A DNA stretch of 64,000 nt. Source: an uncultured bacterium (GTDB taxonomy: Bacteria > UBP6 > UBA1177 > JAKLFG01). The DNA lies in NCBI GenBank assembly GCA_937871295.1, contig CALMRE010000219.1, positions 174-64,173 of the forward strand, read 5' to 3'. Below the pieces are notes generated by a model that saw nothing but the letters and a program-made list of their open reading frames with translations, was not told the origin of the DNA and searched no databases. The position numbers and the translations under genes are program-made. Each line of letters opens with the position of its first letter. Within the stretch, counting starts at the first letter, position 1. Below, piece by piece: positions 6,609 through 49,734 of the stretch.

Positions 6609-7547
6609 ATGCGCCGTTCGTTCCTGTTCCTTTTTCTCCTTGTCGGCTGGTGTTCTGTCGGGGCCAAAAGCGACTACGCCGTGCTGAAGCTCTGCTTTGA
6701 GAAAGAGGGCGCCCCCTTCCTGATCTCCACCAAGGACAAAAAGACGGGAGAACAGGAGGGTTTCCAGCAGGTCAAGGACACCGAACTCTGGATGCGCAAG
6801 ATGAAGGTGTTCGTCGACTATCAGCCGGTATTCTCTTTCAAATCGGTCAGCGACCACTGTATCGCCGTTTCACGCATACCGGCAGGATCCCATACCGTCA
6901 CGATCGACTTCAAAGGCGCCGCCTATACCACCCTCGTCGCCCCCGCGGGCGTCACCAAGAAGTTCAAGCCCGATCTTCTTTTCGAGGCGGCCATGAAGGT
7001 GGAGGACGGTCCCACCGCGCGCGTCGACATACAACAGGGACAGGACCGGGTGTCGCTTTACCAGACGGTCGACAATCAACCGGTCGCCGGTTGCGAAAAA
7101 GGCTGCACGATACCGGTGGATGTCCCGGTCTATTTCATGATCCGCTCCGATGACGAAAAGGTGGAGTGTCCCGTCCAGTACGAACTGATAGTGCCCAATA
7201 AACGAGACCGGGATCTCGGTTGCTATGATGTCGCGGCCATCACGGCGCAATTGCAGGCTTTCGTCAAAACGAGCAACAGCAAATGCCGCGTGAACATCGA
7301 ATACGCCTTCTTCCGGGTTTACGGCGACGGGTGTATCGTGACGCTCGAACCTGATGCGAACGGTCTGCGGCCGAAGGATCCGGAGATACGACTCCTGCCG
7401 CTCGAAAAGCAGAAACTCCGCTATTTTCTGCAGGTCAATGACGGCGAGAAAAAGAACCACATCTTCTCCTCCGCGGACAAGAAGGGGGAGGTCCTCACCC
7501 CCAAAGAGGGAGAGGTGATCACGCTCATCGAGGTCCACGAGCAATGA
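6609..7547 (+). CDS. Secreted cysteine-containing hypothetical protein
   Basis: Signal peptide MRRSFLFLFLLVGWCSVGA; multiple Cys. The stop overlaps the purN start (ATGA). Confidence 0.5.
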   Translation: MRRSFLFLFLLVGWCSVGAKSDYAVLKLCFEKEGAPFLISTKDKKTGEQEGFQQVKDTELWMRKMKVFVDYQPVFSFKSVSDHCIAVSRIPAGSHTVTIDFKGAAYTTLVAPAGVTKKFKPDLLFEAAMKVEDGPTARVDIQQGQDRVSLYQTVDNQPVAGCEKGCTIPVDVPVYFMIRSDDEKVECPVQYELIVPNKRDRDLGCYDVAAITAQLQAFVKTSNSKCRVNIEYAFFRVYGDGCIVTLEPDANGLRPKDPEIRLLPLEKQKLRYFLQVNDGEKKNHIFSSADKKGEVLTPKEGEVITLIEVHEQ

Positions 7548-8158
7548 AAATAGGCCTTTTCATATCGGGCAGCGGCACGAATATGGATGCGGTGATCCGC
7601 TCGTGGCGCACCGGCCGTTTTTCCCGGGTGGAGGAGGTCAGTTTCGTCCTCTCCGACAAACCCGAGGCCCCGGGGCTGGCCAAGGCGGCCCGCGCCGGTG
7701 TGCCGGCGCTGGTGGTCGTCCGGCTGAAAGGCGAAACGCGCGAAGCGCATGAGACACGCATCCTCGAGGCGATCGCCCCCTACGAGGTGGAACTGATCGT
7801 GCTCGCGGGTTTCATGCGGGTGTTGTCGCCCCATTTTCTGTCCCGTTTCAAGGGAAAGGTCATCAACATACATCCCTCGCTCCTTCCCGCCTTCCCGGGG
7901 ATCGATGCTCAGCATCAGGCGTTCGATCACGGCGTCAAGGTGACCGGCTGCACCGTTCACTTCGTCGACGAGAGCCTCGATGGCGGGCCGATCCTTCTGC
8001 AGAGGGCGGTCGAACGGCGCGATCACGACACCGCCGAGGATCTGCGCCTGCGCATACTCGCCGAGGAGCACGAACTGCTCAGCAAGGCGGTGGAACTGAT
8101 AACGACCGGAAGGTACCGCGTCAATAACAGATATGTCAGTTGTGGAGAGGAGTCATGA
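7544..8158 (+). CDS. purN: Phosphoribosylglycinamide formyltransferase
   Basis: MKIGLFISGSGTNM...HPSLLPAFPG...GCTVHFVDE are PurN hallmarks. Confidence 0.85.
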   Translation: MKIGLFISGSGTNMDAVIRSWRTGRFSRVEEVSFVLSDKPEAPGLAKAARAGVPALVVVRLKGETREAHETRILEAIAPYEVELIVLAGFMRVLSPHFLSRFKGKVINIHPSLLPAFPGIDAQHQAFDHGVKVTGCTVHFVDESLDGGPILLQRAVERRDHDTAEDLRLRILAEEHELLSKAVELITTGRYRVNNRYVSCGEES

Positions 8159-45576: not shown

Positions 45577-47100
45577 TCAGCCGAGGCTCCCGACCGCCGC
45601 TTCGACCGCGTCGAGTATCGCGCCGGTGCGGACCAGTTCCTGCATCGCGGTGTGGTCGGGGTAGAGCGGCCGGTCGATCTCGAGGAATTCGACCTTCTCG
45701 CGGATCGCCTTGTGGGCCGCCGCGACACCCTTTCCGGTGGTGAAACCGCGGATGTCGAGCGCCTGCGCCGCCGCCATGAATTCGATGCCGATGACGCCGT
45801 TGGCATTGTCGAGTATCTGGAGATTCTTGAGGGCGGTGTTCATTCCCATCGAAACGAAATCCTCCTGATCGGCCGCCGCCGGGATCGACTGGGTCGATGC
45901 GGGGGAGCAGAGGATACGCTGTTCGACGATGAGGGTATCGGCGGTGTACTGCGACAGCATCAGCCCCGAGAACATGCCGGGGTTCTTCGTGAGGAACGGC
46001 GGCAGACCGACCGACAGCGCCGGGTTATTGAGCCGGTTCATTCGGCGCTCCGAAAGGACGCTCACCATCGTGATCGCCTGACCGACCATCTCCATCGGCA
46101 GAGACACCGGCGTCCCCTGGAAGTTGGCGCCCGAGAGCGTCAGTTTCTCCTCGGGGATGAAGATCGGATTGTCGCCCACGCCGTTCAGTTCGGTCTCGAC
46201 CTGCGAGCGGGCCCAGCGGATGGCGTCGTGCGCCGCGCCGATGACCTGCGGGGTGGAGCGCATCGAATAGGCGTCCTGCACCTTCGTCTTCACCTTGCCG
46301 GTGAGGAGGTCGGAGCCGGCGACACATTTCCGTATCGCGGCGGCCGAGCGGACGGCGCCCGCAAAGCCGCGCAGTTCGTGGAGTTTGGTGTGGTACGGCT
46401 TCATGTTGGCGAGCAGTGCCTCGAGCGACATCGACGCGGCGATCTCGGCCTGCTTGAGCCAGCGGTCGGCGTCGTAGAGCGTCAGCGCGCTGATGGAGGT
46501 GAGGAGGTTCGAGCCGTTTATCGCGGCGAGTCCGTCACGCGCCTTGAGGCCGGGGACCGGGATCCCCGCCTTTTCGAAGGCGGTCTTGGCGGGAAGCAGT
46601 TCACCTTTATAATAGGCCTGTCCTTCGCCGAGGAGGGTGAGCGCTATCTGCGACATCGGGGCGAGGTCGCCGCAGGCGCCGACCGACCCTTTCTTGCAGA
46701 CGAACGGGGTGACGCCTTTGTTGAGCATCGCGATGAAGGTCTGCGGTATCTCGGGGCGGCAACCGGAGTTGCCGTGGGCGTGGACGTTGATGCGGGCGGA
46801 CATCGCGGCGCGGACATGCTCGATGGGGGCGGGGTCGCCGATGCCGGCCGAGTGGTTGTAGACGAGCCACCGCTGGAACTGTTCTATCTGGTCGTCGGCG
46901 AGCACCACTTCGGAGAATTCGCCGATGCCGGTGTTGACGCCGTACATGATCTCGCGCTTCGCGATCTTCTCTTCGACCATCGCGCGGCAGAGTTTGATCC
47001 GTTCGAGCGCTTTGGGGCACAGTTCGACCGGTTCGCCGTTACGGGCGATGGCGACCAGTTGTTCGATGGTCAGATGGCTTCCGTCAAGCATGATGGCCAT
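45577..47100 (-). CDS. HAL/PAL-family aromatic amino acid lyase/aminomutase paralog with an Ala-Cys-Gly triad
   Basis: GSVGACGDLAPMSQ carries ACG where ASG normally forms the MIO cofactor. The rest is full-length HAL-like (YGVNTG, NGSN, SMG regions). It ends 63 nt upstream of batA on the same strand. Confidence 0.7.
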   Translation of the reverse strand: MAIMLDGSHLTIEQLVAIARNGEPVELCPKALERIKLCRAMVEEKIAKREIMYGVNTGIGEFSEVVLADDQIEQFQRWLVYNHSAGIGDPAPIEHVRAAMSARINVHAHGNSGCRPEIPQTFIAMLNKGVTPFVCKKGSVGACGDLAPMSQIALTLLGEGQAYYKGELLPAKTAFEKAGIPVPGLKARDGLAAINGSNLLTSISALTLYDADRWLKQAEIAASMSLEALLANMKPYHTKLHELRGFAGAVRSAAAIRKCVAGSDLLTGKVKTKVQDAYSMRSTPQVIGAAHDAIRWARSQVETELNGVGDNPIFIPEEKLTLSGANFQGTPVSLPMEMVGQAITMVSVLSERRMNRLNNPALSVGLPPFLTKNPGMFSGLMLSQYTADTLIVEQRILCSPASTQSIPAAADQEDFVSMGMNTALKNLQILDNANGVIGIEFMAAAQALDIRGFTTGKGVAAAHKAIREKVEFLEIDRPLYPDHTAMQELVRTGAILDAVEAAVGSLG

Positions 47101-47209
47101 GGAGAACTCCTTAAAAAGCGGTTATTCACTACCGACCGGGGGCGATTATATTAGTAAGGAAAGGAGAGGCAAGGAAAATGGATGAAAACCGATGATGCCG
47201 CCGAAAAAG

Positions 47210-47776
47210 TTACTGACACTTCTCTGGGGTCTGCGCCGCTAATGAGTCGCCGCTGATACCGGCATTGGGCAGTTGCGCTTTAATATCGGAAAATTGTTGT
47301 TCGTCGGTGATACAGTTCCCGTTTACCGAAAGTGCCGTTATTTTCTTGCAGGAATATAGCGGACTAAGATCCGTTAAGTAGTTGTCCATAAGGTATAGCG
47401 CGTTCAACTCTGTCAGTCCCGACAACGGTTCGAGGTCTTTTATCTTATTGTTGTTAAGTTTAAGGTTGGTGAGTTTCGTCAGCGTGCGGAGTGGTTCGAG
47501 CGATTCGATCTGGTTGTCGCTCATGCCGACCCAATCAACATTAGGCATGTTTCCTATCCCTCTGATATCTCTGATCGTTCCCGCGCCACAACCTATCATC
47601 TTGACCTTGCTGTACTTGTCCGGATCGTTAGGGTCTATAAGATCGTTATTGTAATAGTCTTGAAGTGTTTCTTCGACGCAGGCTTTGAACGCCGGATCGG
47701 GGAACATCTCGCCGTTGCCGCCGTCATCGCACCCAACCGCGCCGATGAACACAACCGCCAGCAGAAAGTTCCTCAT
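47210..47776 (-). CDS. Internalin-like leucine-rich-repeat lipoprotein (low-GC gene)
   Basis: Lipobox AVGCDDGG; LRR_4-type repeats LxxLxxLxLxxNxIxDLxPL. Local GC is about 47% against a background of about 65%. Confidence 0.65.
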   Translation of the reverse strand: MRNFLLAVVFIGAVGCDDGGNGEMFPDPAFKACVEETLQDYYNNDLIDPNDPDKYSKVKMIGCGAGTIRDIRGIGNMPNVDWVGMSDNQIESLEPLRTLTKLTNLKLNNNKIKDLEPLSGLTELNALYLMDNYLTDLSPLYSCKKITALSVNGNCITDEQQFSDIKAQLPNAGISGDSLAAQTPEKCQ

Positions 47777-47789
47777 GGTAGCCGTGGCC

Positions 47790-48032
47790 TTACGCCGCGA
47801 CATAGGACCGACCGACAGCCTTGAGCCCGACCGGCTTTTTCTGGAACAGCATCTTGCGGAACGCCTCGAACCGCTTCACCTGCGCCGGCGTGTAGAGCCG
47901 TTCACCGCATTTCTCGCAGACCTCGGCGACCACCTTGAGGACGGCGGTGTCGTTGCCGCCCTTCACGATCTTTTCAACCTCTTTCTTCACCACGGCGCCG
48001 CCGCAGGTCGGACATTTTTTGAATGGAAGCAT
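47790..48032 (-). CDS. YgiT-type zinc-finger protein (MqsA-N-like), putative antitoxin
   Basis: MLPFKKCPTCGG...VCEKCGE gives the CxxC...CxxC zinc ribbon of the zf-YgiT family, about 80 aa. It starts 2 nt after the DUF4258 gene. The long track ORF at 47790..48398 was rejected as a fusion artefact. Confidence 0.6.
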   Translation of the reverse strand: MLPFKKCPTCGGAVVKKEVEKIVKGGNDTAVLKVVAEVCEKCGERLYTPAQVKRFEAFRKMLFQKKPVGLKAVGRSYVAA

Positions 48033-48034
48033 GA

Positions 48035-48346
48035 CTATTTCCTCCGCTTCTTGTTCTCTATCCACCGCTTGGGATCGGGGCGGTACACTGTTATGAGTAC
48101 CGCGTACCCGTTCTCTGCATTGTATCCCCACACCGAATGTATCGGCTCCTCGCGGTAGTTCCTGCCCGCGATAAGGATACTCGGATAGGGCTTGTCCTTC
48201 GGGTACTCTTCGATGATCTCGCCGTGCAGGACCGACTCGAAGATATCCTCGTACAAAAGCCGGTCGTTCTGAGCCTCGTCGTCGGCGTGTTCGGTGACCC
48301 GGTAATGTTCCTTGGCGATGGCGTCCAAAATGTCGGCGAGTTTCAT
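48035..48346 (-). CDS. DUF4258-family protein, putative toxin partner of the YgiT zinc-finger protein
   Basis: 103 aa, pattern ...HA.DEA..D.L...DI...L..GEIIEEYP.D.PYPS.LI.G...... typical of DUF4258. DUF4258 is commonly paired with zf-YgiT. Confidence 0.55.
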   Translation of the reverse strand: MKLADILDAIAKEHYRVTEHADDEAQNDRLLYEDIFESVLHGEIIEEYPKDKPYPSILIAGRNYREEPIHSVWGYNAENGYAVLITVYRPDPKRWIENKKRRK

Positions 48347-48423
48347 CGGTTCCTCTCCCGGTTCCGGCCCATTGTACCAACGGACAAGATGATGTCAAGA
48401 CGAGGCGTTAGTGCTTCGTGCGG

Positions 48424-49734
48424 TCAGCGCACCACTTCGGCGGTGAAGTCGATGCCGTCGCGGCCGGTGAGGCGGACCGTCAGGAGGTCGCCGGGCCGCT
48501 CTTTTTCAAGGTTCGTGAGTATCGTGATGCCGTCTATCTCGGGCGCCTGATGAACGCCGCGCCCTGTCGCAAGGGCACAACCGGCGTCAAATTCCTCATA
48601 CAGCACCGTCGTGGTCGTGCCGACGAGCCGTGACAGCCGTTCCTCCATCGTCGCCTGCGCCGTCTCCTGAAGCAGGGCGACCCGCCGGGCGATGGTGTCG
48701 CGCCGGTGCGACCGGAGTTTGCCCGCCGGGGTGTTCTCCTCCTTCGAGTAGCCGAAAACACCGATATAGTCGAGCGGAGCGCCAGCGATGAATGAACGCA
48801 TCTCCTCGAACTGGGCCGTCGTCTCACCGGGGAACCCCGCGATAAAGGTGGTGCGGATGATGGCGCGGTCGCCGAAGCGGCGGATGATGCTCTCCAGCGC
48901 GCGGTCGATATCTTTGCGGCGGTAGCGACGGTGCATCGCTTTGAGCACCGGATCGCTCGCATGCTGGAGCGGTATCTCGAAGTAGGGGAGCACTTTTTTG
49001 TGATCGAAGGCGTCAAGGAGCGTCGCGTCGATGCCGGAGGGGTAGAGGTACATCACGCGGATGCGGAACTCGCCCGGCAGTTTCGCCAGTTTTACCAGCA
49101 ACTTGGCCAGCGTCGTGTCGTTGTCGCGGCCGTAGGCGGTGGTGTCCTGCGCGATGAGGGTGAGTTCGCGGACGCCGGTGTCGATGAGCCGCGCCGCCTC
49201 GTCACGGATGTCGCGCGGCGGCCGTTCGCGGTAACTGCCCCGGATGAGCGGAATGGCGCAGTAGGAACAGCGGTTGTCACAGCCGTCGGCTATCTTTATA
49301 TAAGAGGTATAAGGCGACAGGGTGAGCGCCCGGTCGTGCTGGGCGGTCGCGATGAACTGCGGGCCGGTGGTTATCTGCGGCGCGGTGTCGCCGTCACCGA
49401 CGAGCGCGGCGATATGCGGGATATCCTCGATGCCGATGACCAGATCGGCCTCCGGGATCTTCGCGGCGATGTCGGGATACAACTGCGGCAGACAACCGGC
49501 GAGCACGAGTCGCGCCCCCTTCCGGCGGTGTGCATGGAGGTCGAAGAGCCGGTCGACCGTCTCCTGCCGCGCCTCCTCGATGAAGGCGCAGGAGTTGAGA
49601 ACGATGAGTTCGGCCGCCGTGGGATCGTCCACTACCCGCCAGCCGTCGCCCATGAGCGCCGCGAGCATCACCTCGGTGTCGACGCGGTTCTTGGGACAGC
49701 CGAGCGATTCAAAGTAGAGGGTGCGTTTCTTCAC
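48424..49734 (-). CDS. rimO: Ribosomal protein S12 methylthiotransferase RimO (MiaB-family radical SAM MTTase)
   Basis: MTTase N-domain LGCPKNRVD; radical-SAM CDNRCSYC; C-terminal TRAM domain. The length and N-terminus favour RimO over MiaB. Confidence 0.75.
   Translation of the reverse strand: MKKRTLYFESLGCPKNRVDTEVMLAALMGDGWRVVDDPTAAELIVLNSCAFIEEARQETVDRLFDLHAHRRKGARLVLAGCLPQLYPDIAAKIPEADLVIGIEDIPHIAALVGDGDTAPQITTGPQFIATAQHDRALTLSPYTSYIKIADGCDNRCSYCAIPLIRGSYRERPPRDIRDEAARLIDTGVRELTLIAQDTTAYGRDNDTTLAKLLVKLAKLPGEFRIRVMYLYPSGIDATLLDAFDHKKVLPYFEIPLQHASDPVLKAMHRRYRRKDIDRALESIIRRFGDRAIIRTTFIAGFPGETTAQFEEMRSFIAGAPLDYIGVFGYSKEENTPAGKLRSHRRDTIARRVALLQETAQATMEERLSRLVGTTTTVLYEEFDAGCALATGRGVHQAPEIDGITILTNLEKERPGDLLTVRLTGRDGIDFTAEVVR

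Follow-up and report, generated by a model that had tools for sequence, protein, structure and literature searches.

Organization of the rimO–HAL interval

Three genes, all on the minus strand, lie between rimO and a gene of the HAL (histidine-ammonia-lyase) family in the 64 kb stretch of DNA that was analysed (the window), as the initial annotation had described. The features of the interval are as follows.

48424–49734: rimO, flanking the interval on one side
48403–48423, minus strand: left junction, about 20 nt from the rimO stop codon to the cassette
47790–48402, minus strand: 613 bp cassette (promoter, DUF4258 gene and YgiT gene), the only block that the window has in common with L001/L002 and L176
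48371–48398, minus strand: sigma-70-type promoter-like site (TTGACA, 16 nt, TG-TACAAT)
48035–48346, minus strand: DUF4258 (PF14076) protein, 103 aa, a predicted BECR/RelE-fold toxin, structurally closest to MqsR
47790–48032, minus strand: YgiT-type zinc-ribbon protein, 80 aa, with CxxC at residues 7–10 and 39–42, a predicted antitoxin equivalent to the MqsA N-terminal domain
47210–47776, minus strand: leucine-rich repeat (LRR) lipoprotein, 188 aa (197 aa from the ATG at 47803), outside the cassette
47101–47209, minus strand: LRR–HAL spacer with a HAL promoter-like site, conserved and anchoring the variable interval on the right
45577–47100: HAL-family gene, flanking the interval on its other side

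The HAL promoter-like site identified by consensus scan lies at 47145–47172 (TTGCCT, 16 nt, TATAAT), and the segment from 47184 to 46924 is 99% identical in the relative L176 and is also kept in L089 and L090; 53 bp of this spacer and anchor region are duplicated in L090. At the opposite edge, homology to the relatives ends at or just beyond the rimO stop codon (at 48424 for L089, 48416 for L090 and 48422 for L176), and in L089 the rimO stop is followed immediately by the start of the LRR gene. All four relatives compared differ from the window in this interval, and RhuM and other variable genes occur there in relatives, in keeping with the earlier suggestion that it carries accessory cargo. 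There is no recombinase or integrase gene, RNA family or unusual RNA fold within the interval, no tRNA gene in the 64 kb window, and no Rhs, CdiA or T6SS/T7SS gene near the cassette.

Base composition and codon usage

The initial annotation assigned a GC content of 46–50% to the region from about 47.2 to 48.4 kb, against a background of 65%. The measured window mean is 60.7%, and the low value holds for one part of the region only. The lowest-GC 600 bp in the whole window does fall here (at 47101; 47.2%, approximately 4 SD under the mean), and the trough, which falls to 46–50%, extends from about 47050 to 47700 and corresponds to the LRR gene and the LRR–HAL spacer; the segment 47700–48400, in which the two-gene cassette lies, has a GC content of 54–62%. 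Codon usage is divided in the same way. The mean GC3 over the approximately 61 ORFs of the window is 0.78 ± 0.05, and both the DUF4258 gene (GC 0.55, GC3 0.78) and the YgiT gene (GC 0.60, GC3 0.80) are close to it, with a codon bias for the pair (B = 0.27, null 0.33 ± 0.06) that is typical of the host. The LRR gene has a GC of 0.49 and GC3 of 0.61 from the 47776 start, and when read from 47803 (GC 0.50, GC3 0.62) has the lowest GC3 of all these ORFs; its codon bias is at the 95th percentile. Codon usage had been proposed as a check on foreign origin, and the answer is a split one: it is uniform for the pair and deviant for the LRR gene.

The LRR lipoprotein

The identification of the product of the low-GC gene as an LRR lipoprotein is well founded. 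It matches the Pfam families LRR_4 (E = 9e-14), LRR_9 and LRR_8, and the signal sequence MRNFLLAVVFIGAVG-C has, by inspection, a lipobox-type end, the Cys of which is invariant in 13 homologues; the homologues begin at the equivalent MR... residues. The protein is probably surface-exposed. It belongs to a small family of proteins of about 190 aa known only from metagenomes, and one protein, P0122, is 100% identical to it. Its likeness to the internalins (Listeria InlA/InlH class) lies in the LxxLxLxxNxIxDIxPL-style repeats and the N-terminal export signal present in both, and internalin models are its best NCBIfam matches (E ~1e-16). However, only the LRR segment aligns, the score of 59 bits is far from the InlA cut-off of 1600, there are only about 4–5 repeats in 188 aa with no inter-repeat Ig-like domain, and the protein is a lipoprotein with neither an LPXTG nor a GW anchor.

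The LRR gene adjoins HAL in two of three close relatives (L089 and L090) and is missing from L176. Its product is 51–58% identical to its positional homologues in L089 and L090, where HAL is 95–98% identical, and the gene is low in GC in every relative that carries it. Because the gene is both low in GC and resident beside HAL in relatives, its presence here does not reflect a recent, genome-specific insertion. Rather, the gene is fast-diverging and lineage-specific, usually located beside HAL, and separate from the cassette.

The DUF4258 and YgiT genes

The product of the first cassette gene is a clear member of the DUF4258 family, matching Pfam PF14076 over profile positions 2–71 of 71 (E = 1.3e-20, 73.8 bits, cut-off 25), and the family call of the initial annotation thus stands for this protein. 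A 202 aa ORF at 47790–48398 was judged spurious, being a frame shadow of the DUF4258 gene. The protein is 55–66% identical to homologues across phyla, and the family is spread over bacteria and archaea. Its predicted structure has an MqsR-like BECR fold, and Foldseek comparisons with this model return almost exclusively RelE, HigB and MqsR toxins, though with weak E-values (0.015 or higher). There is no match to the MqsR family PF15723 at E ≤ 0.01, and a profile of 38 homologues has only chance-level matches to PDB sequences, with no solved structure among them.

The second gene encodes a zinc-ribbon protein in which the four cysteines are invariant across 44 homologues, and its YgiT assignment also stands well above cut-off (39.4 bits against TIGR03831 YgiT_finger, cut-off 20.2). 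It aligns to the N-terminal half of the Pfam MqsA_antitoxin model (E = 1.7e-6), covering profile positions 1–54 of 127 and 2–62 of 131 in the two MqsA models (TIGR03830 and PF15731), and its predicted fold is that of the toxin-binding N-terminal domain of MqsA. The model consists of two long strands and one helix with no helix-turn-helix (HTH), and the protein ends at residue 80. Because it ends after this domain and no HTH is found, it scores below the MqsA family cut-offs (30.1 against 61.8, and 28.7 against 30). Pfam and NCBIfam scans reveal no HTH, RHH or AbrB domain. Short length is a property of the family: among the top 150 cluster representatives the median is 84 aa, and 136 do not exceed 120 aa; no HTH is present in the seven longest representatives scanned.

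There are several indications that the two genes act together. First, the toxin gene precedes the antitoxin gene with a spacer of exactly 2 nt (48033–48034), as the initial annotation had reported, and there is an internal Shine-Dalgarno sequence; the YgiT gene is probably translationally coupled to its neighbor. Second, the pairing was noted earlier as a recurrent one, and indeed it recurs in each of the ten further independent loci examined, which come from bacteria and one archaeon, with the partner overlapping the toxin gene or no more than 3 nt away. These include a 16.6 kb Acaryochloris plasmid, in which the pair comes after ParA, the Butyrivibrio plasmid pNP144, in which the partner is named 'MqsA family antitoxin' in RefSeq, and L169, where the homologue is surrounded by TIR, SIR2, PIN and ParE genes; most other contexts are housekeeping operons (pgi, dxr–rseP) or a plasmid partition region. 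Third, there is a natural 202 aa DUF4258–YgiT fusion (P0222). Finally, purifying selection on the two genes is strong (dN/dS of 0.01–0.08, compared to 0.18–0.25 for rimO).

A 613 bp cassette

Comparisons by blastn delimit the pair together with its promoter as a discrete unit. It is 92.5% identical to positions 7945–8557 of L001 and, over window positions 48399–47794, 95.9% identical to positions 6634–7239 of L176, with unrelated flanks on both sides in the two comparisons. The homologous stretch opens 3–4 nt ahead of the -35 hexamer and closes with the stop codon of the antitoxin gene. The promoter-like site has 11 of 12 consensus positions plus an extended -10 TG (consensus scan), and both hexamers are kept in L001 and L176, with a different promoter spacer in L176. 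No operator or inverted repeat is present in the cassette promoter region; a palindrome is present in L176 and absent from the window. No terminal inverted repeats, direct repeats or target-site duplication were seen at the cassette ends, and an origin as an integron cassette was rejected as there is no attC-like sequence beyond the stop codon.

The distribution of the cassette is patchy. It is absent from L089 and L090, in which rimO is 94% and 89% identical respectively, and it occupies the rimO–HAL interval only in the window and in L176, where it is at a different position; in the related lineage represented by L001/L002 it is in an unrelated neighborhood. Comparison of the interval among relatives, also proposed in the initial annotation, therefore has a different outcome for the two components, the pair lacking conserved synteny and the LRR gene retaining it in part. 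The toxin–antitoxin pair is the truly mobile part of the interval.

Function and origin of the cassette

The DUF4258/YgiT unit probably constitutes a type II toxin–antitoxin module built like MqsR/MqsA and carried as a reshuffled accessory cassette, and is probably functional as such, in a family that has been previously predicted and annotated. The DUF4258 protein would be a small toxin of the BECR/RelE fold that most likely acts as an endoribonuclease, and the four-cysteine zinc ribbon, as the equivalent of the toxin-binding N-terminal domain of MqsA, would neutralize it by direct binding, to which natural fusions such as P0222 lend indirect support only. The 613 bp promoter-to-stop cassette appears to have been reshuffled within a strain-variable rimO–HAL hot spot, to have reached one or more further chromosomal sites in a related lineage, and to have been resident long enough to gain host-like codon usage. 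The evidence that runs against this model includes the MqsA scores below cut-off, the lack of a sequence match to MqsR and the weak Foldseek E-values.

Comparison with MqsR/MqsA (YgiU/YgiT) of E. coli (PDB 3hi2, 3gn5) shows how the two systems differ. DUF4258 has no detectable sequence similarity to MqsR. The catalytic residues of MqsR are Lys, Gln and Tyr, whereas the conserved residues of the DUF4258 protein are His/Arg-based; these invariant residues (H20, H70 and R89) are its candidate catalytic residues. Relative to MqsA, the window antitoxin stops after the N-terminal domain and the C-terminal HTH is not found, such that autoregulation through a promoter palindrome is not expected and classical repression of its own near-consensus promoter by the module is improbable. 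An antitoxin with no DNA-binding domain leaves the usual autoregulation of type II systems unexplained, which counts against the model. A bolder reading, which we offer tentatively as possible but doubtful, is that the pair is a stripped-down MqsRA-type module with a ribbon-only antitoxin, the operon running from a constitutive promoter with no conditional autoregulation since the antitoxin has no DNA-binding domain, and that the 613 bp unit relocates between intergenic spacers with no recognizable recombinase or repeat. If so, both properties would depart from the textbook model of type II toxin–antitoxin systems.

Gerdes (2025; PMC11980606) lists PF_DUF4258 as a putative toxin family of the RelE/ParE (BECR) superfamily with its target given as unknown and without references, and counts 17 DUF4258–MqsA fusions; the window protein is a clear member, and its MqsA-type partner fits both those fusions and P0222. 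DUF4258 is also the Ntox49 of Zhang et al. 2012 (PMC3482391), and a 2026 preprint assigns it to a colicin-like BECR branch, a placement that suggests tRNase rather than mRNase activity and counts against the MqsR-like model.

Could the main role of the cassette be abortive infection against phage, as part of a defence hot spot, and not selfish addiction or stabilization? The strain-variable interval with RhuM and other variable genes in relatives, the company kept by the L169 homologue and the defence roles of some RelE-superfamily modules (PMC11980606) are consistent with this, but the toxin has no PADLOC match, its other contexts are mostly housekeeping operons or a plasmid partition region, and no trigger or sensor component is evident; we therefore regard it as unlikely. 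The phage-related searches are neutral on this question, with no toxin relatives in viral contigs scanned with the DUF4258 profile and no match in phage records by tblastn; the toxin also has no PHROGs match.

It is less plausible still that the two proteins are not toxin and antidote at all, being instead a small nucleic-acid-binding protein and a zinc-ribbon cofactor with a regulatory or housekeeping role. No DUF4258 family member is known to be toxic, and host-like codon usage, very strong purifying selection and frequent location within housekeeping operons would all suit such a role. However, the distribution is patchy even in near relatives, the pair is found on plasmids beside ParA, the predicted folds match both partners of a known toxin–antitoxin complex, and a family present in bacteria and archaea is typical of mobile toxin–antitoxin modules.

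On the model that follows from the initial annotation, the whole 1.3 kb stretch (the LRR gene and the toxin–antitoxin pair) would be a single low-GC block recently and horizontally inserted between HAL and rimO. The position of the GC minimum and the accessory nature of all three genes, in an interval that varies among relatives, do lend themselves to this view, but it is now very improbable and runs counter to the finding that the two components occur separately: only the LRR gene is present in L089 and L090, and only the cassette in L176 and L001. Moreover, low GC does not extend beyond the LRR gene and the spacer 3′ of it, while the pair is average in GC3 and codon usage, homology with L001 and L176 ends exactly at the antitoxin stop codon, and there is no tRNA gene, integrase or flanking repeat. 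Finally, an orphan polymorphic-toxin/immunity cassette, in which an Ntox49-type tip and its immunity protein would act in inter-bacterial competition, is very improbable, as the 103 aa protein stands alone with no secretion or trafficking domain and none of the above secretion-associated genes nearby, its partner is an MqsA-like zinc ribbon and not Imm22, its top structural matches are classical toxin–antitoxin toxins, and the cassette comes with a promoter of its own and a complete start codon.

Significance

The cassette and the surface lipoprotein are both of already recognized kinds, and the locus is therefore fairly ordinary. The value of the analysis is mostly corrective, in that two features resembling one islet are told apart, and it illustrates that composition and mobility can disagree: the mobile cassette looks native and the positional resident looks foreign. 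The locus is also a well-delimited example of a DUF4258/YgiT system, in which the promoter, the two genes and the putative catalytic residues are all delineated, and the structural models support a link between this family and MqsR/MqsA. The rimO–HAL interval itself may be a useful marker for telling strains of this uncultured lineage apart.

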